Shown piece by piece: positions 2,212 through 61,620 of a DNA stretch of 64,000 bases. The stretch comes from Candidatus Staskawiczbacteria bacterium RIFOXYB1_FULL_38_37. GTDB taxonomy: Bacteria; Patescibacteriota; Minisyncoccia; Minisyncoccales; Staskawiczbacteraceae. Under the pieces are notes generated by a model that saw only the letters and a program-made list of their open reading frames with translations, ran no database searches and was not told the origin of the DNA. The stretch lies in contig MHPK01000004.1 in assembly GCA_001822075.1 (NCBI GenBank), positions 71,979 to 135,978 on the forward strand. The letters run 5' to 3'. Position numbers and translations under genes: made by a program. Position 1 is the first letter of the stretch. Each line of letters begins with the position of its first letter.

Positions 2212-4017
2212 CTAATTTTCTGCAGAAATTATTTTTCTTTTTGCTTCTCTGGCTCTTAAAACTTCTTCTGGAGCTGTAGTTATTATCTGGTCTTCTGTTT
2301 GGCTGGCAACAACAGAAATTGCAACATGTTTTTTACCGGCAAAAAATAATCCTTCTCCTACGGCAGCTTCAAGCAAAAGGTATTTTTCCTGCTCTGTTAA
2401 ATTAAAGGTTTTTTGCACAATATCAATTGTGGCTGGAGACTGCTTCATTAAAAGCTGCAAAGAAGAGTTTGTAACAATTGCCTTTCCATAATCTGATTTC
2501 ATAAAATCAGCAACGTCTTGGGTGATTGTCGTAACCCCAAGCCAGTATTTTCTGCCTCTTTTTGCCAGCCCAAATAAAAATGAAGCCCCGTCTTCTGACT
2601 GCATAAGCCACCATGCCTCGTCAATCACAAGTATTCTCTTTTTTAAGCTTGTTCTAACAATATTCCAAACATACCTCATAATTATATATAAAGCTATTGG
2701 CCTTAAAGATTCTTCCATATCTCTTATTCCAAAAACAACAAGGCTTTTTTCTATTGAAATATTTGAGTGCTGATTAAAAAAATCTGCAAAAGTGCCCTTG
2801 GTGAATTTTTTAATTCTTTTTACCAAAGATTCGGTTCCTGTCATGCTTTCTAAAACTTCTTCAAAGTCAGACATCAAGGGCACATTGTTCTGCCATGTTG
2901 CAGGGTCAGCCTGGGCAGTAATATCTCTTATAGCATAGGTTTCTGTGAGAGCCTCGTCTAAAACACTATCTTCTTCTGCAGTAAGCCCGCCAAGCATAAT
3001 TCTTAAAAGCCCTACCAAGTTAATAATGTTTGAGCGCAAAATGTCTTCTGGGTTGTCATCTGGCCCTGGGGTTGGCAGGTCAAATGGATTTAAATGGTTG
3101 GGCGAGGTAAGTGAAATTTTTAAAAAAGCTCCTCCCACAGAATCAGCCAAAGCCTCATATTCATTTTCAGGGTCAATAATAATTACATCAACCCCCTGCA
3201 TTAAATATCTTAAAATTTCCAATTTTATAGCATATGATTTTCCCGAGCCGGCTTTTGCAAAAACAACTGAATTAGCGTTTTCCAAACTAAATCTGTCAAA
3301 CAACACCAAAGAATTGTTATGCCGGTTTATGCCGTATAAAATACCTTCGTTTGAGCTTAAGTCAAAAGACATAAAGGGAAACGAGGTTGAAAGGGGCTCT
3401 GTGTCCATTGGGGTGTGCACATCCAGTAAATCTAATCCATACGGGTTGCAGGAAATAAATCCTTCTTTTTGCTTGAACAAAGCAGGCTTTATATAAATTA
3501 GCCTTGATTCAAAAATTGACCTCAAGGTAAGTTCTGTGTCTCTTAATTCTTTTTCTGAATTTTCATAAACTGTTATATAAAGCCCGAACCTGAACATTTT
3601 TTCCTGGGCTGTCATAAGCTTATCCCTTAAGTTTTCAATATCCCTATAAGCTGTTTCAAGCGCAGGGTCTCTTACAAGCCCTTTTTCTTCTCTTTCTAAA
3701 ATTTCAGAAGACACCTCAGTAATTTTTTTTCTTAATTTTTTTAGAATAAGCTCTGAAGAAATTGGGTGCACAAAAAACGATATGTCCATTGGGCTGCTTA
3801 AGTCAATTACAGGCGTCAGCCAGCCTGTGTTTAAATATCTGGGGTATGAAAAAACAAAAAAAGATTTTGCGAACCTTTCGCCCAGTTTTATGTGGTCTTG
3901 GGTAATTCCAATATACGGGGGAGCAATAATGTCTTTTACATCAAAAGATTCCTCTTCAAATATCTTGTCTTCAATCTCGTTTTCTTTTTTCCCGAATAAA
4001 TTGTCTAAAAATTTCAT
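2212..4017 (-). CDS. virB4: VirB4/TrbE/PrgJ-type type IV secretion ATPase
   Basis: 601-aa ORF; Walker A AKAGSGKS, Walker B ILVIDEAWWL; stop lies 13 nt upstream of the pilin-fusion gene start. Confidence 0.9.
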   Translation of the reverse strand: MKFLDNLFGKKENEIEDKIFEEESFDVKDIIAPPYIGITQDHIKLGERFAKSFFVFSYPRYLNTGWLTPVIDLSSPMDISFFVHPISSELILKKLRKKITEVSSEILEREEKGLVRDPALETAYRDIENLRDKLMTAQEKMFRFGLYITVYENSEKELRDTELTLRSIFESRLIYIKPALFKQKEGFISCNPYGLDLLDVHTPMDTEPLSTSFPFMSFDLSSNEGILYGINRHNNSLVLFDRFSLENANSVVFAKAGSGKSYAIKLEILRYLMQGVDVIIIDPENEYEALADSVGGAFLKISLTSPNHLNPFDLPTPGPDDNPEDILRSNIINLVGLLRIMLGGLTAEEDSVLDEALTETYAIRDITAQADPATWQNNVPLMSDFEEVLESMTGTESLVKRIKKFTKGTFADFFNQHSNISIEKSLVVFGIRDMEESLRPIALYIIMRYVWNIVRTSLKKRILVIDEAWWLMQSEDGASFLFGLAKRGRKYWLGVTTITQDVADFMKSDYGKAIVTNSSLQLLMKQSPATIDIVQKTFNLTEQEKYLLLEAAVGEGLFFAGKKHVAISVVASQTEDQIITTAPEEVLRAREAKRKIISAEN

Positions 4018-4123
4018 AACAGAAATTTTAAATTATAAATTTTAAATGAAATTATAATGTTTAAATGTTTTAAAATTTAAGAATTTAGTTTTGAATTAAA
4101 ATTTAAAATTTGTTATTTAAAAT

Positions 4124-4789
4124 TTATTTTAGGAGTTCTGGCAATATTTCTGGATAATATCCCACCTCTGCCTGATCCGGATGGTGTATGGCCCAAAAAA
4201 GCTCTATAAGCTCTGGCGTTGTAAGGGGCACAGCCTCCAGCCCGCACCTTCTTAAACCCATTGCAACATATTCCATTCTTTGCCATATTTGAGTTTTGCA
4301 TCTTTGGAACTTGTCGTCATCTAATTTTTGATTTTGTTCTTTTTTACCTGAAAACTGGCTTAACAAATTGAAATTTTTTACAGCTGACCCCACGCCAAAA
4401 ATTTCCATTAAATTATAGGGAACTACCGCATAAAAGTTTTTTGTCATAACCACATCCCCCACAACCATATTTTTAATAAATTCCCTGTAAGAAGAAGTTT
4501 GTTTTCTCAGCAGTTCGTTCGTTTGTTTTTCTTCTAAATCTTTTATGCTGTCTAAATATGGAGTAATGTTTATATTTCTTGACTGAATGACAATTTGGCA
4601 GGAAAAATCCAAAGAATTCAAAAAGCTTTGAAAAGCATATACAATTGCCGTCTGCTCTTCTTCAGATTTTAACGCAAAATTTATTGAGGAAACCATTAAT
4701 ATTCCCCTTATAGAGCTATTTTTTAAAATCAAAACCCCCTCTCTTATATCCTGCACTTCCAAAAATGCTTGTGTTGCGCTCTCGGTCAT
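4124..4789 (-). CDS. Hypothetical T4SS-associated protein (resembles the non-ATPase N-terminal domain of Gram-positive-type VirB4)
   Basis: 221-aa ORF co-oriented with virB4. The N-terminus (FLEVQDIREGVLILKNSSIRGILMVSSINFALKSEEEQ) looks like VirB4 N-domain openings. Assigned by pattern memory only. Confidence 0.55.
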   Translation of the reverse strand: MTESATQAFLEVQDIREGVLILKNSSIRGILMVSSINFALKSEEEQTAIVYAFQSFLNSLDFSCQIVIQSRNINITPYLDSIKDLEEKQTNELLRKQTSSYREFIKNMVVGDVVMTKNFYAVVPYNLMEIFGVGSAVKNFNLLSQFSGKKEQNQKLDDDKFQRCKTQIWQRMEYVAMGLRRCGLEAVPLTTPELIELFWAIHHPDQAEVGYYPEILPELLK

Positions 4790-5689: not shown

Positions 5690-5857
5690 TTTTAAATAAT
5701 TTTAAATTATAAATTTTAATTGAAAAACCTAATTTTTAAATGTTTTAAACATTTTAACATTTAAAATTGATTTAAAATTTAAAATTTGTTATTTAAAATT
5801 TTATTCTATTATTATACCATGCAGAAAAAAGTAGTGATAACAAAAGTTTTCAACACC

Positions 5858-17068: not shown

Positions 17069-19255
17069 TTATCTTTTGAAGAATCCTTTTTTATAGGGTT
17101 TTTCTTCAGCTCCCGTGTGCTTGCTCTTGGGCTTGAATCCTGCCTCAATTGCTGAAAGATTTATTCTGCCCATGTCATCAATTGAAATAACTTTTACAGG
17201 AATTTTATCTCCCTCTCTTACAACATCTGCAACCTTATCTATATGCTGGGGTACGAATCTTGATATGTGCACCAGCCCTGATTGTCCGGGCAAAATGTCA
17301 ACAAATGCGCCAAAGTCCATAATTTTTCTGACGGTTCCCGTAAAAGTTTCGCCAATTTCAACTTCTTTTACAATTCCTTTTATCCAGCTGACTGCTTTTT
17401 CAACCCCTGCTTCATCTGTGCCGGTAATAAATACAATTCCAGTATCTTCTATATCAATTGTAACTCCGCATTCTTCAATAATTTTATTTATTACACTTCC
17501 TTTTGGTCCCACAACTTCTCCAATCTTTGAAGGATTAATCGTCATTGTAAATATTTTTGGAGCAAAAGAAGACAAAGATTTTCTGGGTTCTGAAATCTGT
17601 TCCTTTATTATATCAAGTATTTTAAATCTTGCATCTTTTGCCCTGTCTAAAGCTTCTTGCATTATGTTTTTATCAATGCCGTCTGTCTTAATATCCATTT
17701 GAATTGCTGTAATTCCGTTTTTGGTTCCTGCCACTTTAAAATCCATGTGTCCATAGTGGTCTTCCGGGCCCTGAATATCAGTTAACACTTTATATTTTCC
17801 GCTATCTTCATCTTTTGCCAAACCAATTGAAATTCCGGCCACAGGTTCTTTTATAGGCACTCCTGCATCCATTAAAGCAATGCAGGCAGCGCACACAGAA
17901 GCCTGCGAAGTAGAACCGTTGGAAGACACAACTTCAGAAACAATTCTTATTGTGTAAGGAAATTTTTCAACATCCGGAAGTATTGGCGACAATGCTTTTT
18001 CAACCAAAGCTCCGTGCCCAATTTCCCTTCTTTTCGGGCCTCTCATAGGAGCTGTTTCTCCGGAAGAAAATGGAGGAAAATTATAATGGTGCAAGAATCT
18101 TTTTTTGCCAACAAATTCCATACCCTCCAATACCTGCTGGTCGCCGGGTCCTCCTAAAGTTAAAATTGAAAGCACCCTTGTCAGTCCTCTAAAAAATACT
18201 CCGCTTCCATGAGCCCTCGGCAATACCGCAACCTCGCAAGACAAAGGCCTTATTTCAGTTGATTTTCTGCCGTCGGGCCTTTTATCTTTTTCAATTATAT
18301 TTTTAATAATTATTTTTTCTATTTCTTTTTCAAAAAAAGCCAGCGCTTGTTTTTCTTTGCCCTCGCCCGGATATTTTTCTTCTAAATATTTTATTAAGTC
18401 ATCTTTTAAGGATTCGGCAACTGCAAGATTTTTTTCTCTAGCCGGCGCTTCGTTTATTGCTTTTTCTAATTTATCGCCAAGCCATTCTTTTATTTCGTTT
18501 TCAATATCTGATTCAACGGCCGGTTCAAAAATATCTTTTTGCTTTCCGATTTTTTTAACTGCCTGAATTTGAACATCAATAATTTTTTTGAGCTCTTTTT
18601 TGGCAGATTCATAAGCTTCTAAAACATCTTTTTCTAAAACTTCTTTAGCTCCCATTTCAATCATGTTTACCAAAATATCTCCATCCCTTTCTATGGCAGA
18701 TAAAGTTAAGTCCATTTCGCTTTCTTTTCTCTGGCTGTAGCTTGAATTAAATTTCCATTCGCCTGCCTGCGCAGGCAGGCCATTTTTTGTAACTCTGATT
18801 GCCCCCAACGGGCCTGACCACGGAATGTTTGAAACAGCTAAAGCAAATGAAGCTCCAATCATTCCTAAAATATCAGGGTCGTTTTCTCCGTCCCACGAAA
18901 GGCAGGTTACAACAACCTGCACCTCTTTTTTAAAATCTTTTGGAAACAACGGCCTTATAGCTCGGTCAATCATACGGGCAGTTAAAATTGCGTCTTCTGT
19001 CGGCCTTGATTCTCTTTTCATAAACCTTGAGCCGAAAATTTTTCCTGCGGCATAAAACCTTTCCTCGTATTCAACAGTTAAAGGAAAATAATCTATGTCG
19101 GGCCTGGAAAATGGAGAAAGAACAGCGGTTACTAAAACCTCTGTTTCTCCGCACGAAACCAAACAAGAGCCAGATGCCTGCTCTGTCCAGTTTGTAGTTT
19201 TGATTATTATGGGCTTTTCACCCACTTTTATCTCGAATGTATCTTTTACCGCCAT
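17069..19255 (-). CDS. pnp: Polynucleotide phosphorylase
   Basis: Start trimmed to ATG 19255 (MAVKDTFEIKVGEKPI). Two RNase PH domains, a KH domain (GPKGSVINKIIEECG) and an S1 domain (FGAFVDILPGQSGLVHISR). Confidence 0.93.
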   Translation of the reverse strand: MAVKDTFEIKVGEKPIIIKTTNWTEQASGSCLVSCGETEVLVTAVLSPFSRPDIDYFPLTVEYEERFYAAGKIFGSRFMKRESRPTEDAILTARMIDRAIRPLFPKDFKKEVQVVVTCLSWDGENDPDILGMIGASFALAVSNIPWSGPLGAIRVTKNGLPAQAGEWKFNSSYSQRKESEMDLTLSAIERDGDILVNMIEMGAKEVLEKDVLEAYESAKKELKKIIDVQIQAVKKIGKQKDIFEPAVESDIENEIKEWLGDKLEKAINEAPAREKNLAVAESLKDDLIKYLEEKYPGEGKEKQALAFFEKEIEKIIIKNIIEKDKRPDGRKSTEIRPLSCEVAVLPRAHGSGVFFRGLTRVLSILTLGGPGDQQVLEGMEFVGKKRFLHHYNFPPFSSGETAPMRGPKRREIGHGALVEKALSPILPDVEKFPYTIRIVSEVVSSNGSTSQASVCAACIALMDAGVPIKEPVAGISIGLAKDEDSGKYKVLTDIQGPEDHYGHMDFKVAGTKNGITAIQMDIKTDGIDKNIMQEALDRAKDARFKILDIIKEQISEPRKSLSSFAPKIFTMTINPSKIGEVVGPKGSVINKIIEECGVTIDIEDTGIVFITGTDEAGVEKAVSWIKGIVKEVEIGETFTGTVRKIMDFGAFVDILPGQSGLVHISRFVPQHIDKVADVVREGDKIPVKVISIDDMGRINLSAIEAGFKPKSKHTGAEEKPYKKGFFKR
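18761..18780. repeat. 20-bp perfect GC-rich palindrome inside pnp
   Basis: GCCTGCCTGC|GCAGGCAGGC; encodes LPAQAGE within ..VTKNGLPAQAGEWKFN.. Confidence 0.9.
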
Positions 19256-21558: not shown

Positions 21559-21596
21559 ATTCGCTAATTTTTAATTTTAAATTTAAAATTTTAATT

Positions 21597-21736
21597 GAAT
21601 GCCCTAATCTCAAATGTTTAAAACATTCTATCATTTAGATTTCATTTAAAATTTAAAATTTGTTATGAATGCCCTAATCTCAAATGTTTAAAACATTCTA
21701 TCATTTAGATTTCATTTAAAATTTAAAATTTGTTAT
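21597..21736. repeat. Perfect tandem duplication (2 x 70 bp) of an AT-rich hairpin element
   Basis: 21597-21666 is identical to 21667-21736 (GAATGCCCTAATCTCAAATGTTTAAAACATTCTATCATTTAGATTTCATTTAAAATTTAAAATTTGTTAT). Confidence 0.95.
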
Positions 21737-22466: not shown

Positions 22467-23969
22467 ATGACAATACCAAAAGAGGTCAAAATCATTATCG
22501 AAAAACTGCAAAAGGCGAAGTTTGAGGCATATATCGTGGGCGGATGCGTGCGCGATTTTTTAATTGGCATTAATCCTAAAGACTGGGACATAACCACAAA
22601 TGCCAAGCCCGAAGAAATCCAAAAAGTTTTTCCGGATAGTTTTTATGAAAATAATTTTTTAACTGTCACCGCGCGCACAGGCAGTAAAAAAATTCCGGAG
22701 GTTGAAATTACTACTTACAGATTAGAAGCAAAATATTCTGACAAGCGTCATCCAGACGAAATAAAATATGCAAAAACATTAGAAGAGGATTTAAGCCGCA
22801 GGGATTTTACCATAAATGCAATGGCCCTTCGCCTCGGCTCAGGGCCTTCGGCCAAAAAAGAAGTTGTTGATTTGTTTGAAGGGCAGAAAGATTTAAAAAA
22901 TAAGATAATCAAGACAGTTGGAAATCCTGAAGAAAGATTTTCAGAAGATGCTTTAAGAATGTTAAGGGCAGTAAGGTTTGCAGCAACTTTGGAAGATGGT
23001 TTTTCCCGCCAAGAGGCGGGACCCCGCCAGAGGCGGTGGAAAATTGAAGAAAATACTGCAGAAGCTATTAAAAAAAATAGCATCTGGCTGGAAGCGATTT
23101 CACAGGAAAGAATAAAAGATGAATTTTTAAAAATAATTATGTCAGATAAAGCTGAAGAAGGAATTGAGCTTTTAAGAGAGCTTAGCTTATTAAAATACAT
23201 AATTCCTGAATTATTGGATAATTACGGCGTAAGCCAAAGCAAACATCATATTTATGACTGCTACCAGCATGCAATAAAATCTTTGGGATATGCTGCAAAG
23301 AAAAAATTTAATATGCATGTAAGATTGGCGGCTCTTTTGCATGATATTGCCAAGCCAAAAGTAAAAATTGGAGAGGGCGAGGAAGCTACTTTTTATAATC
23401 ACGAAATAGTTGGAGCTAAAATAACTTTCCAGCTTCTAAACAGATTAAAATTTTCCAAAAAAGATGTTGAAAAAATAACAAAACTGGTAAGATTCCATTT
23501 GTTTTATTATAATGTTGACGAGGTTGGAGAATCGTCTGTAAGAAGACTGGTAAAAAATGTGGGGCCGGAAAACATAGAAGAGCTTTTGCAGGTAAGGCAG
23601 GCAGACAGGATTGGTTCTGGCGTGCCGAAAGCAGAGCCCTATAAATTAAGGCATTTAAAATATCTGATTGATAAAGTTTCACAGGACCCAATTTCAGCTA
23701 AAATGCTGGAAATTGACGGAAACGATTTGATGAAAATTTTAAAAATAAAACCCGGTCCAAAAATCGGCCAGATTTTAGATATTCTTTTGGGATATGTTTT
23801 AGACGACCCCCAAAAAAATAGCAAAGAATTTTTGCGCAAAGAAGCTGATAAATTGGGCAAATTAAGCCAAAAAGAATTGCAAAAATTGGCGGAAAAATCA
23901 AAGCAGGAAAAACAGGAAGTTGAAACCAAAAAAGACGAAATGACCAAGCAAAAATATTGGGTAACATAA
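22467..23969 (+). CDS. cca: CCA-adding tRNA nucleotidyltransferase with HD domain
   Basis: 500 aa; GGCVRDFLIG..DWDITT head domain and HD motif LLHDIAKP. Carries GC hairpins at 22823-22853 and 23005-23036. Confidence 0.9.
   Translation: MTIPKEVKIIIEKLQKAKFEAYIVGGCVRDFLIGINPKDWDITTNAKPEEIQKVFPDSFYENNFLTVTARTGSKKIPEVEITTYRLEAKYSDKRHPDEIKYAKTLEEDLSRRDFTINAMALRLGSGPSAKKEVVDLFEGQKDLKNKIIKTVGNPEERFSEDALRMLRAVRFAATLEDGFSRQEAGPRQRRWKIEENTAEAIKKNSIWLEAISQERIKDEFLKIIMSDKAEEGIELLRELSLLKYIIPELLDNYGVSQSKHHIYDCYQHAIKSLGYAAKKKFNMHVRLAALLHDIAKPKVKIGEGEEATFYNHEIVGAKITFQLLNRLKFSKKDVEKITKLVRFHLFYYNVDEVGESSVRRLVKNVGPENIEELLQVRQADRIGSGVPKAEPYKLRHLKYLIDKVSQDPISAKMLEIDGNDLMKILKIKPGPKIGQILDILLGYVLDDPQKNSKEFLRKEADKLGKLSQKELQKLAEKSKQEKQEVETKKDEMTKQKYWVT
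23005..23036. repeat. Two tandem GC hairpins inside cca
   Basis: CCCGCC-AAGA-GGCGGG (23005-23020) and CCGCC-AGA-GGCGG (23024-23036); together they encode SRQEAGPRQRR. Confidence 0.85.
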
Positions 23970-24095: not shown

Positions 24096-24113
24096 ACCTG
24101 CCTGTCGGCAGGC
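24096..24113. repeat. GC hairpin in the tRNA-Pro/tRNA-Ala spacer
   Basis: ACCTGCC-TGTC-GGCAGGC; shares CGGCAGGCAGGC with the element at 41329-41349. Confidence 0.7.
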
Positions 24114-24147
24114 AGGCGCGTCATTTTTACCCCGTTAGAAAATTCAC

Positions 24148-27268: not shown

Positions 27269-28189
27269 ATGTCAAAAGAGAGTGGAGTAATTGAAATAAC
27301 TAATAAAAAGTATCCGAAAGCGCTGAAACAGGCGCTTTCGGTTTTGGTGCCAAGCTCTGGCCCGAAAAAATTGTATTACAAAGGAAATTGGTCAGATGAT
27401 ATTTTCAAAAATTGCCTGGCAGTTGTTGGCTCCAGGCATTTAACTTATTATGGCAGAAAGGCCACAGAGCAAATTGTAACAGAATGCGCAGCAGCTGGCA
27501 TTACAATAGTTTCAGGTTTTATGTATGGCGGAGATGAAGCGGCTCATTTAGCTGCTGTAAAATGCGGAGGAAAAACAATTGCTGTTATGCCTTGCGGCAT
27601 AGACTTAATACACCCCGCAAATCAAAAAAATCTATATCAGGAAATTTTAAACAACAACGGCCTTGTAGTTTCAGAATACGAAGGCTCCGCCCAGCCTCAA
27701 AATTTTACCTATGTGCAAAGGGACCGGCTTGTGGCAGGGCTTTCAAAAGCAGTTTTGGTCACGGAGGCTGCTTTAAATTCCGGCTCTTTGATTACGGCCA
27801 GCTATGCCAAAAAATATAACAGAAAAGTTTTTGCTGTGCCAGGGCAAATTACTTCAGAAGTTTCAAGAGGAACTTTAAAATTGATAAAAGAGGGAGCTGA
27901 ACCTGTGGCTGACGCAAGCGATATTTTAAGCTATTTTAAAGTTTTGGTGAATCAAGGAGTTAATCAAGTTGATCGAGCCCCGAGCTCACAAAATTTTGTG
28001 AGCTCGGGGCTCACAAAAACTGGCTCGTTAGAGCAAAAAATAATTGCCCAGTTAAAAAGAGAGGCTTTAAGAGCAGATGAAATGGCAAGAATTTTTAATG
28101 TGCCTGTTGCCCAACTTGGCACAACGTTGTCTTTAATGCAGCTTAAAGGCCAAATTTTACAGGATTTTGGAAAATATTACATCAGTTAA
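27269..28189 (+). CDS. dprA: DNA-processing protein DprA
   Basis: 306 aa; AVVGSRHLTYYGRKAT..GGDEAAH..VSEYEG Rossmann-type DprA core. The linker contains the 38-bp REP palindrome. Confidence 0.88.
   Translation: MSKESGVIEITNKKYPKALKQALSVLVPSSGPKKLYYKGNWSDDIFKNCLAVVGSRHLTYYGRKATEQIVTECAAAGITIVSGFMYGGDEAAHLAAVKCGGKTIAVMPCGIDLIHPANQKNLYQEILNNNGLVVSEYEGSAQPQNFTYVQRDRLVAGLSKAVLVTEAALNSGSLITASYAKKYNRKVFAVPGQITSEVSRGTLKLIKEGAEPVADASDILSYFKVLVNQGVNQVDRAPSSQNFVSSGLTKTGSLEQKIIAQLKREALRADEMARIFNVPVAQLGTTLSLMQLKGQILQDFGKYYIS
27975..28012. repeat. 38-bp perfect palindrome (head-to-head REP pair) inside dprA
   Basis: GAGCCCCGAGCTCACAAAA|TTTTGTGAGCTCGGGGCTC; the same GTGAGC-N5-GCTCAC unit that flanks the RAYT gene. 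Confidence 0.9.
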
Positions 28190-32440: not shown

Positions 32441-33316
32441 ATGCCTGAATTGCCGGAAGTTGAAACCACAGTCAAAGGCTTAAAATCAAAGGTCCTGAAC
32501 AGGGCCTTTGTTGATGTGTGGTCAGACTGGGAAAAAACAATTAAAAAACCAAAATTATTTAAAGATTTTAAAAAGCATATAAAAGGCAAAAAAATATTAA
32601 AAATTTGGCGTCGCGCCAAAAATATAATTTTTGACTTGTCGGGCGGATATTCCCTTTTAGTGCACCAAAAAATGACAGGACATCTTCTCTATGGAACATG
32701 GAACATAAAACATGGAACATGGGCGCCAGCTGGAAACAAAAATTTAGAAGACCCGATGAATAAATTTTTGCATTTAATATTTTTTTTGAATGATGGAAAA
32801 ATGCTTGCCTTGTCGGATTTAAGGAAATTCGCCAAAGTTGAATTACAAAAAACTGATGAATTATTAAATTCAAAAGAATTTAAAAATTTGGGGCCCGAAC
32901 CATTAGAAAAAGATTTTACTTTTAAGAAATTTAAATCCTGCCTCGCCGCTAGGCGAGGCAGGATAAAGCAGGTTTTAATGGACCCTTACATAATAGCTGG
33001 CATAGGAAACATTTATTCTTCTGAAGCATTGTGGCAGGCAAAAATACATCCTGAAAAAAGTGTTGCAAAATTAAGTGAAAAAGAGTTAAAATTGCTTTAT
33101 AATGCAATTAAAAAGGTTTTGACCATTTCTGTTAAATTGGGTGGAGAAAGTTTTTCTGATTATAGAAAAGTTGACGGAAGCAAGGGGAATTTTGACGCAG
33201 AAAGAAAAGCGTATAAAAGAGAAGGCCAAAAATGCCAAAGATGCAAAACCCTAATTAAACGTTTAAAATTTGCAGGCAGAAGCGCCTTTTTCTGCCCCAA
33301 CTGCCAAAAATTGTGA
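32441..33316 (+). CDS. mutM: Formamidopyrimidine-DNA glycosylase
   Basis: 291 aa; N-terminal MPELPEVET and C-terminal zinc finger CQRCKTLIKRLKFAGRSAFFCPNCQK. The TGA stop lies inside a REP hairpin. Confidence 0.9.
   Translation: MPELPEVETTVKGLKSKVLNRAFVDVWSDWEKTIKKPKLFKDFKKHIKGKKILKIWRRAKNIIFDLSGGYSLLVHQKMTGHLLYGTWNIKHGTWAPAGNKNLEDPMNKFLHLIFFLNDGKMLALSDLRKFAKVELQKTDELLNSKEFKNLGPEPLEKDFTFKKFKSCLAARRGRIKQVLMDPYIIAGIGNIYSSEALWQAKIHPEKSVAKLSEKELKLLYNAIKKVLTISVKLGGESFSDYRKVDGSKGNFDAERKAYKREGQKCQRCKTLIKRLKFAGRSAFFCPNCQKL
32935..32964. repeat. 30-bp GC palindrome (13-bp perfect arms) inside mutM
   Basis: ATCCTGCCTCGCC-GCTA-GGCGAGGCAGGAT; encodes ..SCLAARRGRI.. Confidence 0.9.
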
Positions 33317-34146
33317 GCCCCGAGCTCACAAGAGTTTGTAAAACTAAAAAATGACTATATTAGACCATGCCGCGGAGAAAAGAACAATTTGTAACCGGCG
33401 AGATTTATCATATTGTAATACGAGCGATTGATAATAACTTGATTTTTAAGGACTTAAACGATTATTATCGCGGCATTTTTTCTATTTACGAGTTTAATAA
33501 CGCCATCCCTGTGAATATTTTTAATCGACGATTAGCCAGGACCGCTGAAAAGAAAAAAGAAAAATTTTGTGAGCTCGGGGCTCACAAAATTTTAGTAGAA
33601 GATGCAAGAGATAAATTTATTAAAGTTTTAGCTTTTTGCTTTATGCCAAACCACGTTCATCTTCTGACAAAACAAATAAAAGACGGGGGAATATCCAAAT
33701 TTATGCAAAAAGTTGGAGGCGGATACGGAGGATATTTTAACAGAAAATATCAGAGGAAGGGTCATGTTTTTCAAAACGAATTTAAATCGGTTCATGTGGA
33801 TACAGATAATCAGCTTATAGCGACAGCTTCGTATATTTTTACAAACCCTATTGCACTTATTGAACCCAGTTGGAAGGAAAAAGGAATTCAAAAACATTCT
33901 GTAAAGGAGGTCTCAAAGTTTTTGGAAGACTATAAATGGTCAAGTTATCAAGACTGCATTGGCGTTAAAAATTTCCCTTCTGTTACAGAAAGAGAATTTC
34001 TTTTAGAAACAATGGGCGGAATAAATGGCTTGAATGGAGTTGTAAAAGATTGGATAGAGCATAAAAAAGACATTGCAAAATACACAGACTTATTTTTAGA
34101 GTAAATCTTGTGAGCTCGGAGCTCACAAGATTTTGTGAGCTCACAA
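33313..34146 (+). mobile_element. REP-RAYT unit: Y1 transposase gene bracketed by GTGAGC-N5-GCTCAC hairpins
   Basis: REP copies at 33313-33329 (loop CCCGA), 33561-33593 (inside the gene), 34104-34132 (loop TCGGA, opposite orientation) and 34133-34146 (loop-less). Confidence 0.75.
33367..34104 (+). CDS. REP-associated tyrosine transposase (IS200/IS605-type Y1 HUH transposase-like)
   Basis: 245 aa; HUH motif MPNHVHLL and catalytic Tyr context ASYIFTNP. Confidence 0.8.
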   Translation: MPRRKEQFVTGEIYHIVIRAIDNNLIFKDLNDYYRGIFSIYEFNNAIPVNIFNRRLARTAEKKKEKFCELGAHKILVEDARDKFIKVLAFCFMPNHVHLLTKQIKDGGISKFMQKVGGGYGGYFNRKYQRKGHVFQNEFKSVHVDTDNQLIATASYIFTNPIALIEPSWKEKGIQKHSVKEVSKFLEDYKWSSYQDCIGVKNFPSVTEREFLLETMGGINGLNGVVKDWIEHKKDIAKYTDLFLE

Positions 34147-34326
34147 GATTTTTTGAGCTTTTTTGTGCTAATTATTACTCAAAAAATAGAAAACAAAGAA
34201 TCAGAGCTAAAAGATTGTATAATTACAAAAAAATGCTTTAATCAAACAATACAGTCATATTTGGGGGTTTTAAAGCATTGTAATAGTTATAAAATTAAAG
34301 AAAATGTATTTAATAAATTTTTGGGA

Positions 34327-35277
34327 ATGATTATATTTTTGTACGGAGAAGATTCTTATAGATCCAAGGAAAAATTAAATGAAATAATAGGGCACTATAA
34401 AAAAGTCCACAAAAGCGGACTGAATTTGATTTTTATTGATGCTATAGAAAAAACGTTTAATGATTTTTTTGACAGCCTTAAAATTGTTTCAATGTTTGCA
34501 GAAAAAAAACTGGTGGTTGTGAAAAATGTATTTTCCGCCAAAGGCGGACCAGCCCCGGGCTGGCAGGAAGAATTTTTAAAAGAAGTTAATAATTTTAAAA
34601 ATATAAAAGATATTATTGTTATTTATGAAAATGATAAAGTTGATGAGAGGCCAAAACTTTTTAAACAGCTAAAAACTCATGCAAAATGCCAGGAGTTTAA
34701 TTTGCTTCAGCCAGCCATGCTGAAAAAGTGGATAGACAAAGAATTTGAAAAGTACGGCTCAAAAATTGATCTGCCAGCAAAAGATCTGTTATCAGCATAT
34801 ACTGGAGATGATTTATGGAAAATGGCAAATGAAATTAAAAAGCTGGCAAATTATAAAAGGGAAGGCATAGTAAAAAAAGAAGATGTTGAGCTTCACATTA
34901 GACCTAAAATTGAAAACGATATTTTTAAAACAATTGATGCTATTTCGCAGAAAAATAAAGGCCAGGCAGTAGGGCTGCTTCACAAGCATTTAGATAACGG
35001 AGACGCTCCCTTGTATATGCTTTCTATGATAGCTTATCAATTCAAAAATCTTTTGATTATAAAAGAACTGGCTGAAAAAGAAGCTGGCTATCAGGCGATT
35101 GTAAAAAAAAGCGGGCTTCACCCGTTTGTAGTTCAAAAGAATTATTATTTGTGCCAGCGCTTTACATCAAGCCAGTTAAAAAAAATCTACCAGAAAATTT
35201 TTCAGGCAGATTCAGATATTAAAACAGGCAAGATAGATCCGGAGCTGGCTTTGGATATGCTGGTGGCTGAAATTTAA
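34327..35277 (+). CDS. holA: DNA polymerase III delta subunit
   Basis: Start trimmed to ATG 34327 (MIIFLYGEDSYRSKEKLNEI), because the upstream extension is REP-derived sequence. Typical HolA length and N-terminus. Confidence 0.8.
   Translation: MIIFLYGEDSYRSKEKLNEIIGHYKKVHKSGLNLIFIDAIEKTFNDFFDSLKIVSMFAEKKLVVVKNVFSAKGGPAPGWQEEFLKEVNNFKNIKDIIVIYENDKVDERPKLFKQLKTHAKCQEFNLLQPAMLKKWIDKEFEKYGSKIDLPAKDLLSAYTGDDLWKMANEIKKLANYKREGIVKKEDVELHIRPKIENDIFKTIDAISQKNKGQAVGLLHKHLDNGDAPLYMLSMIAYQFKNLLIIKELAEKEAGYQAIVKKSGLHPFVVQKNYYLCQRFTSSQLKKIYQKIFQADSDIKTGKIDPELALDMLVAEI
34534..34563. repeat. Exactly 30-nt (10-codon) double GC hairpin inside holA
   Basis: TCCGCC-AAA-GGCGGA followed by CCAGCCCCGGGCTGG; starts on a codon boundary and encodes SAKGGPAPGW. 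Confidence 0.9.
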
Positions 35278-41308: not shown

Positions 41309-41992
41309 ATGAAAAACCAAAAAGACCATGCCTCCCGGCAGGCAGGCATTTCAACATTAATTGGCATAATGGTTATTGTCGCTGTGACAGTTTTAACCTT
41401 CGGCGGAGTTTTTGCATATCAATATTTTTCGACACCAAAAGAAAAAAATCAGCAGCAGATTGAGGACCAAACCGCTGGCTGGAAAACATATAAAAATAAT
41501 GAATATGGTTTTGAAATAAAATATCCAGCTGATTTTAAAATAAACGAAAATTATTACTATGATCTTTCTGCAGGAACAAGCAATAGCGGTTCATTAAATC
41601 TTCCTGGAGTTTCGTTCTCGATTCCGGTTTCTTACACAGACGGAACAAATTTATCTCCTGACACAAAAATATCTGTTGAAATGAATGCGAAGTCAAAAAA
41701 TTGTCTGGTTACGGAATTTTTAAATTCTCCAAACCCCGTTATAGATATCACAGATGAAATTATAAATAAAATTATCTTTAATAGAGGAACAACGGGCGAT
41801 GCAGGCATGGGAAACTATTATAACGAAACTGTTTATAGTACGAAAGGTTTAACTCCTTGCTATGGAATCCGTTTGTTCGTACACAGCACATCTTTAGGAA
41901 ATTATGAACCAGAGACAAGGGTGGCGTATGATTCGGAAAAATTACAATCAGTTTTTAAACAAATTATTTCTACTTTTAAATTTATAAAATAA
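41309..41992 (+). CDS. Membrane-anchored secreted hypothetical protein
   Basis: 227 aa; N-terminal TM helix ISTLIGIMVIVAVTVLTFGGVFAY, then AGWKTYKNNEYGFEIKYPADF. A GC hairpin at 41329-41349 encodes ASRQAGI. Confidence 0.65.
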   Translation: MKNQKDHASRQAGISTLIGIMVIVAVTVLTFGGVFAYQYFSTPKEKNQQQIEDQTAGWKTYKNNEYGFEIKYPADFKINENYYYDLSAGTSNSGSLNLPGVSFSIPVSYTDGTNLSPDTKISVEMNAKSKNCLVTEFLNSPNPVIDITDEIINKIIFNRGTTGDAGMGNYYNETVYSTKGLTPCYGIRLFVHSTSLGNYEPETRVAYDSEKLQSVFKQIISTFKFIK

Positions 41993-45000: not shown

Positions 45001-45620
45001 TAAAGATTCAGCCCGCCTCGCGTCAAGGCGGGCCAGAGAACAAGAAAGCTGCCAAGAAGGGTATAATGGAATATAAAATTCCTGGCAGAATTGCCATGCT
45101 TGTTGAAAAAGGCCAGGATATAAAAGAAAACCAGCCTTTGTGCGAAGGTTCGCTTGATTTAAAAAAGCTGTACAAATCAGCAGGAGTTGAGGAAACCCAG
45201 AGGTATATTTTGAAGGAAGTGCAAAAAATTTATTCTTCGCAGGGGGTTGATATTCATGACAAACATATTGAAACTATAATTCAAAAAATGTTTTCAAGAA
45301 TAAGAGTGAAAGAAGAAGGAGATTCTGATTGGATAAGAGGAGAGGTTGTTGAAAAAGCTATTTTTGAAGAAGAGGCGGATGCTCTCAAAAAATCCAAGAA
45401 AACTCCGCCGGCAGGAACTCAAATATTACTTGGAATTTCAGAAGTTGCATTAAATTCGGAATCATTTTTGTCAGCAGCTTCCTTTCAGCAGACTTCAAGG
45501 GTTTTGATTAAAGCATCTTTAGAAGGCAAGGAAGACAGGTTGCGCGGATTAAAAGAAAACGTAATTATAGGAAAACTTATACCTGTTGGAACAGGATTTA
45601 TCCCGAAAGAAAAAAAATAA
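42015..45620 (+). CDS. rpoC: DNA-directed RNA polymerase beta-prime subunit
   Basis: 1201 aa; zinc motif CACGKYKRIRYKGVVCDRCGV and catalytic NADFDGDQMAV. Confidence 0.95.
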   Translation: MRVLDLESIRIKLASPDDIMSWSHGEVIKPETINYRTQKPEKDGLFDERIFGPEKDYECACGKYKRIRYKGVVCDRCGVEVTKSSVRRERMGHIKLYAPVSHIWFLRGVPSRMGLVLDKSSQQLEKVIYFSSYIVTKVDSEARDRILDAIEEEYKTKVKKEKTEAAKNELRIAREKAKEEVLEIKPLKILSEVVYHALSMKYGEVFEAGTGAEVVREIFSKVDLKKGVEELSKEAKEAPPAMKKKVLRRLKLFQGMLKAGVRPEWMFLEILPVLPPDLRPMVQLDGGRYASSDLNDLYRRVINRNNRLKYLQEISAPSVIVRNEKRMLQEAVDALIDNEMRKGVTTTATTGGKRLLKSLAAMLAGKQGRFRQNLLGKRVDYSGRSVIAVGPELHFSQCGLPKTLALEIFKPFVVKRVLDKELAYNIRGASRLIEEKVPEVWAILEEIVKEKLVLLNRAPTLHRLGIQAFRPVLTEGETIKLHPLVCEAFNADFDGDQMAVYLPLSDEAQKEAKEIMLSTLNLLRPATGLPVMGPFRDIALGCYFLTKLNAVEDKKQLKVYSSGSEAITAYEYGFLGLNDVIKVQNPKSDKDELIETSVGRLILNSSLPHDYFYINKLVDNKGLKQLVREVIEKYPNEEAVVILDKIKHLGFEYCTLSGISWGMDDLIVPPEKGKLIGEAEEEVRRIDSHFEKGLLSSEEKTSQKILVWQSVKTKIEALLKDTLPAEGPVMSIINAGARGTWAQPVQMAGMKGLVNNPAGDIIELPIKSSFAEGFNVLEYFISTHGARKGTADTALRTSSAGYLTRRLVDVAHDVIITEEDCGDKTGFVVYKKDAEAIDQDFIFKIVGRTTVENIETKAEGSERGRRILAKKGELIDWKTADEILKSGIERVVVRSPLACKLGQGVCQKCYGWDLGKNKLVKLGEAVGIVAAQAIGEPGTQLTLRTHHLGGIVGAGDITQGLPRIEEIFESRAPKGEAIMSLTDGKVIAIDEEKRIVKIQPASRQGGPENKKAAKKGIMEYKIPGRIAMLVEKGQDIKENQPLCEGSLDLKKLYKSAGVEETQRYILKEVQKIYSSQGVDIHDKHIETIIQKMFSRIRVKEEGDSDWIRGEVVEKAIFEEEADALKKSKKTPPAGTQILLGISEVALNSESFLSAASFQQTSRVLIKASLEGKEDRLRGLKENVIIGKLIPVGTGFIPKEKK
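45011..45033. repeat. GC hairpin inside rpoC
   Basis: GCCCGCC-TCGCGTCAA-GGCGGGC; encodes PASRQGGP. Confidence 0.85.
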
Positions 45621-47972: not shown

Positions 47973-48410
47973 ATGAGCACAAGGCTTTTGATTTTAGCCA
48001 TTATATTATCAATATTGATTATAATTTTAATAACTATGGGAATATTTTCATTTTTAAATAAAAATAAAGAGAAGGCATCAGAAACATTTAAGTTTGGTTC
48101 TTCTCCAGAATCAAAGGGCTATAAACTTTTAACAAATGTTTCTGAATTTTCAAAAGAATATCAGGAAGCTTTGAATACAGTGATAGCCAAATTAAAAAGC
48201 GAAAAAGATAATCCAAATGATTATTATGTAAAGATAAAACAAGCAGAAGAATATAATACTAATACCATAATAGTCTCTATTATTCACAAAAATACTTTTG
48301 AGACAAAAGACCCGAACAAAGTTATAGCTGGCAACCCAAGCGGTAAAGACAGGAATATTTATTATAATTTAGATGTTAAAATAATTACAAAAGATTTATT
48401 GACACGATAA
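47973..48410 (+). CDS. Small N-terminally anchored protein (cassette ORF B)
   Basis: 145 aa; the anchor MSTRLLILAIILSILIIILITMGIFSF is similar to ORF A, and the rest is unrelated. Confidence 0.6.
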   Translation: MSTRLLILAIILSILIIILITMGIFSFLNKNKEKASETFKFGSSPESKGYKLLTNVSEFSKEYQEALNTVIAKLKSEKDNPNDYYVKIKQAEEYNTNTIIVSIIHKNTFETKDPNKVIAGNPSGKDRNIYYNLDVKIITKDLLTR

Positions 48411-50068
48411 TGAAAGAAGAAATAAAAAAACTAATTGAAAAAGCAATAAAAGACTTGCAGAAAGAGAAAAAATTGCCGGAATTTCAAATTCCAAATATTT
48501 CGATTTTTAATTCAAAAATTTTGTCGTACGGAGATTATAATACAGACATACTTTTTAAATTAAATAAAATATACAATATATCACCAGAAGTAATTGTTAA
48601 ACCATTGTTTAAAAAAATTACTAGCAGTAATACTTACGATAAATTTGATGATGTTGAGCTACTTAACGGCTTTATCAATTTTTTTATTAAAGATGAGTAT
48701 CTGCAAAATCAGCTGGAAGTAATTTTAAAGGAAAAAGATAAATTTGGAAATTTAAATTTAGAAGAAAAAGTTCACCCAGTTAAATCCGCCAAAGGCGGTA
48801 CTTCGCTAAAAGCGAAGCAATTTAACCGGGTAAATATAGAATTTATTTCAGCAAATCCGACAGGGCCTTTGACCTTGGGAAACGGAAGGGGCGGATTTTG
48901 CGGAGATGCTCTGGCAAATATTTTAGAAAAAGCAGGATATAAAGTTTCAAGAGAATATTATGTTAACGATACGGGAAATCAAATTAACAAATTAGGACAT
49001 TCTGTAATTGGAGACGCAGAAGCTGTTTATAAAGGAGAATATATAAATGAATTGCAGAAAAAAATAAAAGGCAATAACCCGCAGGACATTGGAGAAAAAG
49101 CGTCAAAAGTTATTTTTGAAAAAATGATAAAGCCGTCTGTAAAAAAAATGGGAGTTAAATTTGACACATGGTTTTCAGAAAAAACTTTGTATAAAAACAA
49201 AGAAGTGGATGAGGCCATAAACGAATTATCAAAAAAAGGATTTACTTATGAAAGCGAGGGCGCTTTGTGGTTTAGATCAAAAGATTTGGGGGACGACAAA
49301 GACAGGGTTTTAATAAGAGCCGATGGGATTAAAACTTATTTCGCTTCGGATATTGCCTATTTAAAAAACAAATTTAAAAGAGATTTTAACAAATTAATTA
49401 TATTTTTGGGGGCTGACCATTACGGCTATGTGGCTCGCTTAAAAGCTGCCTCGCACGCTTTAGGTTTTGGCGAAGACAGCATTGATGCTATTGTAATGCA
49501 GTTGGTTCGTCTTTTTGAAAAAGGCAAAGAAGTTAGAATGTCAAAAAGAAGCGGCATTTATGTGACAATAGACGAATTAATAGATGAGGTTGGGTTGGAT
49601 GTTGCCAGATTTTTCTTTTTAATGATAGGCCCAAACACGCATTTAAATTTTAATTTGGATTTAGCTAAAGAAAAATCAGAGAAAAATCCGGTTTTTAAGG
49701 TTCAGTACGCATATGCTCGGATTTGCTCAATTATTCGCAAATCCAAGAATTTTCAATTTTCAATTTTTAATTTTCAATCAAATTATAACTTAAAATTATT
49801 AAATGAAAAAAGCGAATTGGAATTGATCAAGCAATTAATTAGGTTTCCGGAAATTGTTGAGGACATTGCCAAAGATTATCAAGTTCAAAGATTGCCGAAA
49901 TATGCCATGGAATTAGCCGACTCTTTTCATAAATTTTATGAAAATTGCCAGGTAATTTCAAAAAATAAAGAATTAACAAAAGCCCGGCTTTCTCTTATTT
50001 CGGCAACAAAAATTGTTTCAAAAAATACTTTAGATTTAATGGGTATATCAACGCCCGAGAGAATGTAA
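48410..50068 (+). CDS. argS: Arginyl-tRNA synthetase
   Basis: 552 aa; EFISANPTGPLTLGNGRG, MSKRSG, C-terminal anticodon-binding domain. Contains repeat insertions at 48775-48830 and about 49745-49790. Confidence 0.93.
   Translation: MKEEIKKLIEKAIKDLQKEKKLPEFQIPNISIFNSKILSYGDYNTDILFKLNKIYNISPEVIVKPLFKKITSSNTYDKFDDVELLNGFINFFIKDEYLQNQLEVILKEKDKFGNLNLEEKVHPVKSAKGGTSLKAKQFNRVNIEFISANPTGPLTLGNGRGGFCGDALANILEKAGYKVSREYYVNDTGNQINKLGHSVIGDAEAVYKGEYINELQKKIKGNNPQDIGEKASKVIFEKMIKPSVKKMGVKFDTWFSEKTLYKNKEVDEAINELSKKGFTYESEGALWFRSKDLGDDKDRVLIRADGIKTYFASDIAYLKNKFKRDFNKLIIFLGADHYGYVARLKAASHALGFGEDSIDAIVMQLVRLFEKGKEVRMSKRSGIYVTIDELIDEVGLDVARFFFLMIGPNTHLNFNLDLAKEKSEKNPVFKVQYAYARICSIIRKSKNFQFSIFNFQSNYNLKLLNEKSELELIKQLIRFPEIVEDIAKDYQVQRLPKYAMELADSFHKFYENCQVISKNKELTKARLSLISATKIVSKNTLDLMGISTPERM
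48775..48830. repeat. 56-nt composite structured element inside argS
   Basis: Outer stem CCCAGTTAAA/TTTAACCGGG (9 of 10 pairs) encloses the hairpins TCCGCC-AAA-GGCGG and CTTCGC-TAAAA-GCGAAG; encodes HPVKSAKGGTSLKAKQFNR. Confidence 0.85.
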
Positions 50069-60342: not shown

Positions 60343-61620
60343 ATGCATAAAAAAACTGAACTAAAAAACAAATTAAGGGTTATTACAGCTCCTATAAAAA
60401 ACGCAAATAGCATTACTTTTTTAGTGCTTGTGGGAACAGGTTCAAAGTATGAGTCAAAAGACGTGAACGGGATATCTCATTTTTTAGAGCACATGTTTTT
60501 TAAGGGCACGCAAAAAAGGCCCAGTACTTTGAAAATTGCTGAAACTTTGGATATGGTGGGCGGCGAATATAATGCCTTTACTTCAAAAGAAGTAACTGGT
60601 TTCTGGGCGAAAGTAGACAAATCACATAAAGATGTGGCTTTAGACTGGATTTCTGATATATTTTTAAATTCTAAATTTGAAGAAAAAGAAATACAAAGGG
60701 AAAAGGGCGTTATAATAGAAGAGCTTAATATGTATTTGGATACGCCCCAAATATATGTTTCAGAATTATGGGAAAAGCTTTTGTACGGAGACCAGCCTGC
60801 CGGCTGGCCTGTTATTGGAGAAAAAGAAATTATAATAAGCTTTAACAGGCAAAAAATTATAGATTATCGAGAAAATCATTATTCCTCCTCTAACACAATA
60901 GTTTGCGTTGCAGGAGACATAATTTCGGAAGAAATAGAAGAAAAAATAAAAAATGTTTTTGGCGCTATGGCAGAAAAAAAAGTTGGAGACAAAGCAAAGA
61001 CAGAAGAATTTCAAAAGAAGCCTGAAGTTTTAATCCATAATAAAAAAACAGACCAGACTCATTTTTGCCTGGGCGTAAGGGGTTATAATTTATTTCACCC
61101 CAAAAGATATGCTTTAGCATTGCTTGCCATTATTTTGGGAGGAAACATGAGTTCTCGGCTTTTTATAAAGGTGAGGGAAAGAAATAGCTTGGCATATTCC
61201 ATACACACCTCTGCTGACAGTTTTACAGATACAGGATATTTAGTTACGCAGGCTGGAATTGACCATAAAAATTTGGAAAAGTCTGTAAGATTAATTTTAA
61301 AAGAATATAAAGATTTAAAAGAAAAAGAAGTTAGCCCAAAAGAATTGCAAAAAGCAAAAGATTATTTAAAGGGGACAATGTCTTTGTCTTTAGACAGTTC
61401 TGACGCCCTATCATCTTTTTTTGCCTTGCAAGAATCGCTAGAAGGAAAGATATTATCGGTTGAAGAAAAATTTAAAAAAATAGACCAAGTTGCTTCAGAA
61501 GACGTTAAAAAAACAGCAGAAGAAATATTTTTACCAGAGAAATTAAATCTTGCTGTAATAGGGCCTATTGCCCAAAATGAGAAAAAAGAGTTAAACTTAA
61601 GTAATTTATTAGAAATTTAA
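60343..61620 (+). CDS. M16-family zinc peptidase
   Basis: 425 aa; inverted zinc motif HFLEHMFFKGT. Confidence 0.88.
   Translation: MHKKTELKNKLRVITAPIKNANSITFLVLVGTGSKYESKDVNGISHFLEHMFFKGTQKRPSTLKIAETLDMVGGEYNAFTSKEVTGFWAKVDKSHKDVALDWISDIFLNSKFEEKEIQREKGVIIEELNMYLDTPQIYVSELWEKLLYGDQPAGWPVIGEKEIIISFNRQKIIDYRENHYSSSNTIVCVAGDIISEEIEEKIKNVFGAMAEKKVGDKAKTEEFQKKPEVLIHNKKTDQTHFCLGVRGYNLFHPKRYALALLAIILGGNMSSRLFIKVRERNSLAYSIHTSADSFTDTGYLVTQAGIDHKNLEKSVRLILKEYKDLKEKEVSPKELQKAKDYLKGTMSLSLDSSDALSSFFALQESLEGKILSVEEKFKKIDQVASEDVKKTAEEIFLPEKLNLAVIGPIAQNEKKELNLSNLLEI

Follow-up and report, generated by a model that had tools for sequence, protein, structure and literature searches.

The arginine--tRNA ligase gene argS of Candidatus Staskawiczbacteria bacterium RIFOXYB1_FULL_38_37 contains a short palindromic stretch that is one copy of a large dispersed element family and not an argS-specific RNA device. 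The gene lies on the + strand at 48410..50068 of the 64,000-nucleotide piece of contig MHPK01000004.1 that we analysed (the window), and the stretch occupies 48771-48834. We consider it likely, at a probability of roughly 80%, that it represents a single copy of a non-autonomous ~60-nt palindromic mobile element whose family is widespread in Patescibacteria (the candidate phyla radiation, CPR) and Omnitrophota. The evidence comes from family membership, covariation, the boundaries of the insertion, reading-frame statistics and a disordered loop in the modelled host protein.

The argS stretch folds as a three-way junction

The window is AT-rich (~35% GC), and the proteins it encodes show full identity with those of Candidatus Staskawiczbacteria bacterium RIFOXYC1_FULL_37_43 (Patescibacteria/CPR), including the argS product ArgRS (100% identity), a 552 amino acid open reading frame (ORF) product with the Pfam domains Arg_tRNA_synt_N, tRNA-synt_1d and DALR_1. 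Within argS, a left arm at 48771-48785 (TTCACCCAGTTAAAT) pairs with a right arm at 48820-48834 (ATTTAACCGGGTAAA) to form a 15-bp outer stem with two A-C mismatches, and these arms are also the terminal inverted repeats of the element. They enclose a first hairpin at 48786-48798 (CCGCC-AAA-GGCGG, 5 bp and a triloop) and a second at 48799-48819 (TACTTCGCT-AAA-AGCGAAGCA, 9 bp with one A-C mismatch and a triloop), giving a perfect three-way junction with zero unpaired junction bases. An earlier note, made from the sequence alone, had described a 56-nt unit here, with two GC hairpins in a three-way junction closed by a 10-bp stem with one A-C mismatch (CCCAGTTAAA, 48775-48784, paired with TTTAACCGGG, 48821-48830). 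All of this pairing is present and the sequence and fold are as it described, but the outer stem extends to 15 bp and the insert is 60 nt (48771-48830), adding 20 codons and not 19; the earlier 54/56 nt correspond to the net length difference from relatives and not to the true element boundaries.

The predicted minimum free energy of the stretch as RNA was -25.7 kcal/mol for the + strand (z -5.6) and -35.7 kcal/mol for the - strand (z -8.0), while folding as single-stranded DNA (ssDNA) gave -18.3 (z -6.6) and -21.4 (z -8.5), respectively. Significance was assessed against 200 dinucleotide shuffles, and all 200/200 were beaten in every RNA and ssDNA fold.

The stretch is an insertion in ArgRS

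The reading frame of argS runs through the stretch and gives ...VHPVKSAKGGTSLKAKQFNR|VNIEFISANPTGP, with the inserted 60 nt encoding amino acids 121-140 (VHPVKSAKGGTSLKAKQFNR). When the 120 best ArgRS homologues, the nearest of which has 76% identity, were aligned, the segment was restricted to the query's own cluster and absent from the other 119. All four members (4/4) of the query's 90%-identity cluster carry the insert, and the identical protein was found on 43 independent contigs, which excludes an assembly artefact. At the DNA level, a relative with an empty site (L001) reads ...GAA AAA GTA AAT GTA GAA TTT, and deleting 48771-48830 from the window gives GAA GAA AAA G|TA AAT ATA GAA TTT (EEK|VNIEF), with the same GTA AAT codons. 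The alignment and the empty-site DNA thus bear out the earlier suggestion that removing the element restores a canonical ArgRS junction.

The alignment of the PDB homologue 3FNR to ArgRS starts only at residue 140. Modelling with AlphaFold2 from 65 homologues gave a mean predicted local distance difference test (pLDDT) score of 90 and a predicted template modelling (pTM) score of 0.90, with residues 122-136 below a pLDDT of 50 and modelled as coil between a helix at 95-111 and a strand at 140-148. According to this model the insert, with its five Lys and one Arg, is a disordered loop in the linker ahead of the catalytic core.

The N-terminal domain of the window ArgRS is unusually divergent. 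A strain variant within the ArgRS cluster (P0122) instead has a canonical N-terminal domain (~1-90), like other Staskawiczbacteria, and is identical to the window protein from ~residue 90 onward, insert included, which suggests recombination (or chimeric assembly) within argS.

The element belongs to a dispersed family

We scanned a collection of one genome per species using a pattern made of the two hairpin cores, for which ~1 chance match was expected, and found 35 loci. The matches omit the window's own genome despite its matching sequence, and this genome may be outside the collection or the stretch may be masked. The same composite, ACCCTGTTAAA-TCCGCCAAAGGCGGA-A-TTCGCCGAGGCGAA-TTA-TTTAACAGGGT, was present in four Omnitrophota loci (three assemblies), with sister copies in the same Omnitrophota locus carrying a different, compensated hairpin 1 (TGCCACTTCGTGGCA). 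A metagenome scan using a pattern of the terminal repeats only found at least 119 stretches, yielding at least 121-122 distinct copies, and the family counts given here are for the copies listed. In total, 1.1 Mb of loci were fetched; coverage was ~80 kb of the window's genome and 2-15 kb pieces of other genomes.

The family has the layout TTY-ACCCNGTTAAAT-hairpin-hairpin-ATTTAACNGGGT-RAA, with ends ACCC.../...GGGT and core lengths of 50-62 nt, and comes from groundwater and sediment metagenomes and from Omnitrophota, Saccharibacteria and Parcubacteria genomes. Several of its features were not required by the search pattern, among them TTY directly 5' of the element (91/84/80%), RAA directly 3' (86/93/90%), and, in 96% of copies, GTTAAA being followed by T; beyond the TTY/RAA flanks the sequence was random. 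At the outermost pair, 70 of 121 copies had mismatched C...A and only 4 had complementary C...G, pairing being systematically avoided where the element meets its target. The argS copy reads TTC-ACCCAGTTAAAT...ATTTAACCGGGT-AAA, and so has both the terminal repeats and the TTY/RAA flanks of the family, and scored 80.3 bits (E 4.5e-20) with our covariance model R1. The same model detected further copies in the fetched loci, one of them from a Saccharibacteria genome, and shorter one-hairpin variants also exist in these loci. The earlier note had asked whether the element occurs between genes elsewhere, and the family indeed includes intergenic copies.

No second copy was found in the window by exact and 3-mismatch searches, a regular expression of the terminal repeats, or R1 with filters off (next best 16.9 bits), and an additional ~16 kb of this genome's flanking sequence had none either. 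Likewise, comparison with Rfam at the gathering threshold and at E <= 10 returned no family, the best score (19.1 bits, E 0.18, mir-1991) lying below the gathering score of 66 and being noise. Viral contigs gave no hairpin-core match and three matches to the terminal-repeat pattern; one of these (L038) was rejected as a family copy, being a plain hairpin without the two internal hairpins. Searching the literature by sequence string and keywords, with incomplete coverage, gave no description of the family sequences or of the phenomenon in CPR bacteria.

In a subset of intergenic copies (L044, L066, L095, L114, L117, L127, L128, L132, L142 and L143) the right flank shares a conserved motif like GATTTTTATAnT, reminiscent of a -10 promoter box, and this may reflect a recurrent promoter context or a longer sub-family.

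Structure is conserved while sequence varies

The interior, which the search pattern left free, held exactly two hairpins in 106 of 122 copies, with loops that were overwhelmingly triloops (TTT 34, AAA 29, TTC 26, GAA 23). Stem sequences ranged from GC-rich to pure AT with pairing kept, and many copies have AT-rich hairpins. When 24 copies of the 58-nt class were aligned without gaps, 95.3% of cells were paired and 14 pairs varied on both sides, a number reached by 0/500 shuffles. Each internal hairpin was 97% paired, with compensatory change at 12 of 14 pairs, and sliding the partners by 1-3 columns lowered pairing to 32-48%. Covariation across copies, proposed earlier as a check on the fold, therefore favours it. 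Relative to the asymmetric termini, the two arms of this alignment occurred in both orders (14:7:3).

We also considered whether one particular strand is the folded, active one, as all three argS mismatches become G-T wobbles on the minus strand. This was rejected, the family-wide ratio of G-T to A-C mismatches being 47:44, and the pattern in the argS copy is probably chance.

Insertion occurs 3' of a tetranucleotide without duplication

The exact boundaries were resolved at ppsA, where 7 of 121 homologues are filled at one site. Three empty relatives read TAT ATT TAT followed by GCT, GGA or GCC, while the filled site reads TAT ATT TA(C CCT GTT AAA ... AGG GTG AA)T GCT, so the insert is 60 nt, 3' of (A)TTTA, with zero bases duplicated and zero lost. 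The argS copy follows the same rule on the minus strand, with the 60-nt unit CCCGGTTAAAT...ATTTAACTGGGTGAA (48771..48830) placed 3' of TTTA (48831..48834; TAAA on the + strand). This TTTA is native host sequence, lying within the conserved GTA AAT (Val-Asn) codons that occupy the same place in the empty relative L001. A target-site duplication is absent at both of these DNA-resolved site pairs, and the flanks are inverted (TTY...RAA). Further examples came from protein structures, with a 20-residue gap in PGK compared with PDB 7ZY7, and 23 extra residues in RsmI compared with 5HW4, which are consistent with the same 20-amino acid insert plus a few linker residues.

Other target models were examined and discarded. 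The empty ppsA sites, which keep Tyr (TAT), ruled out a 60-nt unit YACCC...GGGTR at a TT|AA target, while both blunt insertion of a 58-nt core into TTCAAA and a 2-bp or TA target duplication were ruled out by frame arithmetic and the exact 20-codon net insertions in ppsA and pgk. A second ppsA site, in P0150, lies in a region too variable to serve as a clean empty/filled pair.

Genic copies occupy the single stop-free frame

By position, 17 of the 123 copies listed lie deep inside long ORFs, 16 are entered by an ORF that stops inside the element, 30 lie <=60 nt downstream of an ORF stop, and 60 are otherwise intergenic or on short contigs; 33 of the 123 overlap ORFs of >=100 codons. In-frame copies were found inside at least 15 other housekeeping genes, the interrupted hosts being genes of low-GC genomes (ppsA, uvrC, murD, murG, iscS, rsmH, rsmI, rmlD, pgk, deoC, rplW, RNase J, lgt and atpB). 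One uvrC gene contains three copies, and the closest named relatives of the ppsA host are Nealsonbacteria and Parcubacteria. The encoded peptides share the pattern ...[IVFL][HY]PVK...FN[RG]V[KN]..., which the argS peptide KVHPVKSAKGGTSLKAKQFNRVNI fits (...[HY]PVK...FN[RG]V[KN]); its nearest look-alikes are in L072 (EIHPVKSAEGGVSPKAKQFNRVKD), L111 and L123.

The consensus is stop-free in only one of six frames, with the other five interrupted by TAA in GTTAAAT, AAATAATT and ATTTAAC, and by TRA at the end. The strict frame and orientation of genic copies can be attributed to these stops together with purifying selection, and as one frame is free of stops no codon-aware mechanism is needed. A core length of 1 mod 3 (52, 55 or 58 nt) was seen in 14 of 16 deep-ORF copies compared with 38 of 106 others (Fisher p = 1.7e-4), which indicates that the net insertion equals the core plus 2 nt.

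Mechanism and alternative explanations

We propose that a single strand of the element would fold into a T-shaped three-way junction, with the ACCCNGTTAAAT / ATTTAACNGGGT repeats as the stem and the two triloop hairpins as the arms. In an ancestor of this species it would have entered argS directly 3' of TTTA on the non-coding strand, without target duplication and without loss of host bases, adding 60 nt or exactly 20 codons. Copies that land in the stop-free frame, which in argS falls in an inter-domain linker, would be translated as a hydrophilic disordered loop and tolerated, while all other genic insertions would be purged by selection. More tentatively, and with distinctly less than even odds, mobility may proceed through a folded ssDNA form that is recognised by its structure, in the style of HUH/Y1 enzymes. 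Recognition of a folded single strand is favoured by the lack of duplication, by the retention of hairpin structure with free sequence, and by the C-GAA-G and C-AAA-G triloops, which are very stable DNA mini-hairpins.

Several observations weigh against the mobile-element reading or its details. In the 1.1 Mb of fetched loci, no transposase or larger, autonomous element with the same ends was seen. There is a single copy in ~80 kb of this genome, so the element need not be active in this organism, where its copy may be an old and inactive relic. Conservation of the terminal repeats is partly by construction, as they were the search pattern, and part of the covariation can come from template-switch 'palindrome correction' and not from selection. 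The balance of 47 G-T against 44 A-C mismatches across the family leaves no strand bias and no direct support for one active strand. After deletion of the insert the argS linker is 6 residues, compared with 8 in nearly all relatives, so an extra two-codon change must be assumed, and pgk implies TTCA and not TTTA as its target, this being the sole frame-preserving solution (minus strand).

Of the alternatives, a conventional MITE (a miniature transposable element with inverted repeats), cut and pasted as double-stranded DNA by a DDE transposase that is encoded elsewhere and binds the terminal inverted repeats, survives best. It would suit a small, non-autonomous element with 12-15-nt terminal inverted repeats conserved across phyla, and this genome has a DDE (rve) integrase gene ~14-15 kb outside the window. 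However, neither DNA-resolved site pair has a target-site duplication, the flanks are inverted and not direct, no longer element with the same ends occurs in the fetched loci, and the internal hairpin structure is conserved even though a repeat-binding DDE enzyme would have no need of it; with the stable C-GAA-G and C-AAA-G triloops likewise counting against it, this explanation is improbable.

The earlier note had raised as a candidate an RNA-level function such as processing, regulation or a transposition intermediate, and it is transposition that gives the best reading. A cis-acting mRNA structure that regulates argS, through translational pausing, RNase processing or arginine/tRNA sensing, could draw on the strong fold of the mRNA strand (-25.7 kcal/mol, z -5.6) and on the position at a domain boundary, where pausing could help folding. 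Against this, the identical architecture is found in ppsA, pgk, uvrC, murD, rplW and others, more than 15 unrelated genes in all, and in intergenic DNA, while the other 119 best ArgRS homologues lack the element. Furthermore, the element folds on either strand, with the antisense strand folding better (-35.7), and has no Rfam match. The presence in many unrelated genes, the absence from other ArgRS genes and the better antisense fold contradict an argS regulatory RNA, which we regard as highly improbable.

Equally remote is an adaptive protein insertion. Here selection for ArgRS function would have favoured a Lys-rich 20-residue loop beside the N-terminal domain that binds tRNA, with the palindrome as a by-product. 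The peptide has five Lys and one Arg and the insertion is fixed in 4/4 cluster members and on 43 contigs, but enzymes of unrelated metabolism carry nearly the same peptides, the loop is left unstructured by AlphaFold2, and this explanation leaves unexplained an origin that is clearly the element. Later exaptation of the argS loop may nonetheless have occurred.

Returning to the mobile-element reading, a broader claim can be made with confidence only a little short of even. The copies may constitute an undescribed class of ~60-nt T-shaped mobile DNA hairpins across CPR bacteria and Omnitrophota, which integrate 3' of TTYA without duplication, persist in essential genes by virtue of one stop-free frame, and are probably moved as folded ssDNA by a putative HUH-type enzyme. 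Together with the 30-nt double-hairpin inserts described below, they may be an overlooked general source of protein loop insertions in uncultivated bacteria.

Other hairpins and repeats in the window

The window contains four CCGCC-loop-GGCGG hairpins compared with 0.07 expected. Two of these are in tandem in cca (23004-23039), encoding SRQEAGPRQRRW and coinciding with a 14-residue gap relative to PDB 6IBP, a solved CCA-adding enzyme, which indicates another in-frame hairpin insertion. In holA, the pair at 34534-34563 (TCCGCCAAAGGCGGA+CCAGCCCCGGGCTGG) encodes SAKGGPAPGW and begins at 34534 with the hairpin-1 14-mer of the argS copy, TCCGCCAAAGGCGG; the longer variant is present in ~20-28 of 120 homologues, most others having a shorter S-DA-KF. 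The argS copy had previously been regarded as the largest member of a family of GC elements. The cca and holA pairs are indeed also insertions and share hairpin 1, but the conserved terminal repeat is missing from both and they are consistent with a separate family of 30-nt double hairpins, resembling TCCGCCAAAGGCGG-A-TTCGCCTCNGGCGAA, and GC-richness is not a trait of the argS family.

This 30-nt double hairpin is nearly invariant across many phyla (L003-L037; for example L011 2900-2929, L014 6659-6688 and L028 4505-4534), with hosts in Patescibacteria, Saccharibacteria, Saganbacteria, Omnitrophota, Dehalococcoidia, metagenome-assembled genomes (MAGs) of low-GC Gammaproteobacteria, and others, and with five copies in one Chloroflexota MAG. 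It lies mostly within long ORFs in the frame SAKGGFASGE and is flanked by TT...AA. At holA, a few homologues (P0257, P0278) have nested further GC-rich additions at the same spot, which looks like an insertion hot spot. Several Staskawiczbacteria-like holA homologues (among P0245, P0248, P0251, P0277 and P0303) are 480-660 amino acids in length and these carry a reverse-transcriptase domain (PF00078), pointing to a group II intron or retroelement that has entered holA, or become fused to it, in relatives.

Short GC-rich perfect hairpins of the CCTGCC/GGCAGG and CCAGCC/GGCTGG types also occur within ORFs or between tRNA genes of this 35% GC genome, at 18761-18780 (pnp), 32937-32962 (fpg), 60792-60807 (M16 peptidase gene), 41330-41347, 45009-45034 and 24097-24117 (between tRNA genes). 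Two palindromes, at 27975-28012 and 34120-34159, share the core GAGCTCACAA-ATTTTGTGAGCTC, one being a 22-nt perfect arm pair and the other lying just upstream of the holA start, and might represent a recurring operator or terminator motif. Long imperfect inverted repeats of an AT-rich repeat family (AAATTTTAAATTATAAATTTTAA...) lie in intergenic DNA at 4009-4134, 5690-5800 and 21566-21661.

Window positions 1-21000 contain conjugation-type genes (TraG-like P-loop, TraC-like, PrgI), an AbiEii/HepT-type toxin module and 23S_rRNA_IVP proteins. The left third of the window has its genes on the minus strand, with GC skew reversed up to ~21-22 kb, and dnaA and dnaN are ~7 kb beyond the window start (locus L165). 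This left third could be an integrated mobile region beside the origin.

Significance

For the window itself, there is no need to propose an argS regulatory RNA. More generally, selfish DNA that survives in essential genes is a textbook oddity of Rickettsia, and the element provides a smaller, structurally distinct counterpart in streamlined candidate-phyla bacteria and Omnitrophota. It accounts for a class of hitherto unexplained lineage-specific loop insertions in CPR housekeeping proteins, which affect alignments, phylogenies and structure predictions, and provides a natural setting in which to study protein tolerance of random 20-residue insertions. With the covariance model and the target rule (TTYA, no duplication) the mobilising enzyme should be findable by comparing copy number with gene content.

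Comparison with known systems

Hairpin-dependent single-strand systems that use an HUH/Y1 mechanism include IS200/IS605 with its PATE (palindrome-associated transposable element) derivatives and REP/REPIN sequences (repetitive extragenic palindromes) with RAYT. Like these, the T-shaped element is very small and has hairpins that are conserved in structure and not in sequence, and as with IS200/IS605-derived PATE insertion is 3' of a specific tetranucleotide without duplication (TTTA^ in ppsA and argS; TTCA^ inferred in pgk). However, it is frequently intragenic, its ends form a self-pairing 15-nt inverted repeat and not different subterminal hairpins, and no tnpA or RAYT partner turned up in the pieces of genome covered. 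REP sequences are extragenic, and their tags have a conserved GTAG or CGTC tetranucleotide head (PMC3733652). In contrast, the T-shaped element ends in ACCC.../...GGGT with no such head, and over a quarter of its listed copies overlap ORFs (33 of 123).

Bacterial MITEs and other small repeats (Correia, ERIC/RU, RUP, BOX, BRE) are 100-400 bp in length and usually generate target duplications, such as TA (PMC3184786, PMC2759123). Bacterial MITEs share with the T-shaped element terminal inverted repeats, a non-autonomous nature and occasional in-frame fusion to ORFs or extension of their 3' ends, but their interiors are not constrained to hairpins, and the T-shaped element makes no target duplication.

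The inverted terminal repeat of parvoviruses such as adeno-associated virus is a 125-145 nt T-shaped hairpin that serves as a viral telomere and is nicked by the HUH protein Rep. It too has a stem with two small internal palindromes, and the occurrence of the arms in both orders resembles flip/flop; however, it is a viral telomere and not an interspersed repeat and has no sequence similarity to the element, so the likeness is one of architecture only. Hairpin insertions also occur in organelle genes, as mitochondrial GC clusters and double-hairpin elements (yeast var1, Allomyces). Coding palindromes have likewise been described in the mitochondrial DNA of Nematomorpha (PMC6649704). Both persist in-frame in protein genes of AT-rich genomes, as the T-shaped element does, but they are organellar, unrelated in sequence and without a conserved terminal repeat.

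The closest parallel in behaviour is with the Rickettsia palindromic elements (RPE), of which the original account is reportedly that of Ogata et al. 2000 (Science 290:347). RPE are ~105-146 bp in length (PMC3184786). The T-shaped element, at ~60 nt, is under half this size and falls outside that length range, and it is further set apart from RPE descriptions by its two internal hairpins, its TTYA target without duplication and its CPR/Omnitrophota hosts. Nevertheless, both are non-autonomous palindromic repeats of reduced genomes, found between genes and also in-frame within essential or housekeeping genes, where they are translated as a tolerated extra peptide. As selfish DNA inside protein genes, the T-shaped element is the functional counterpart of RPE in CPR bacteria and Omnitrophota.

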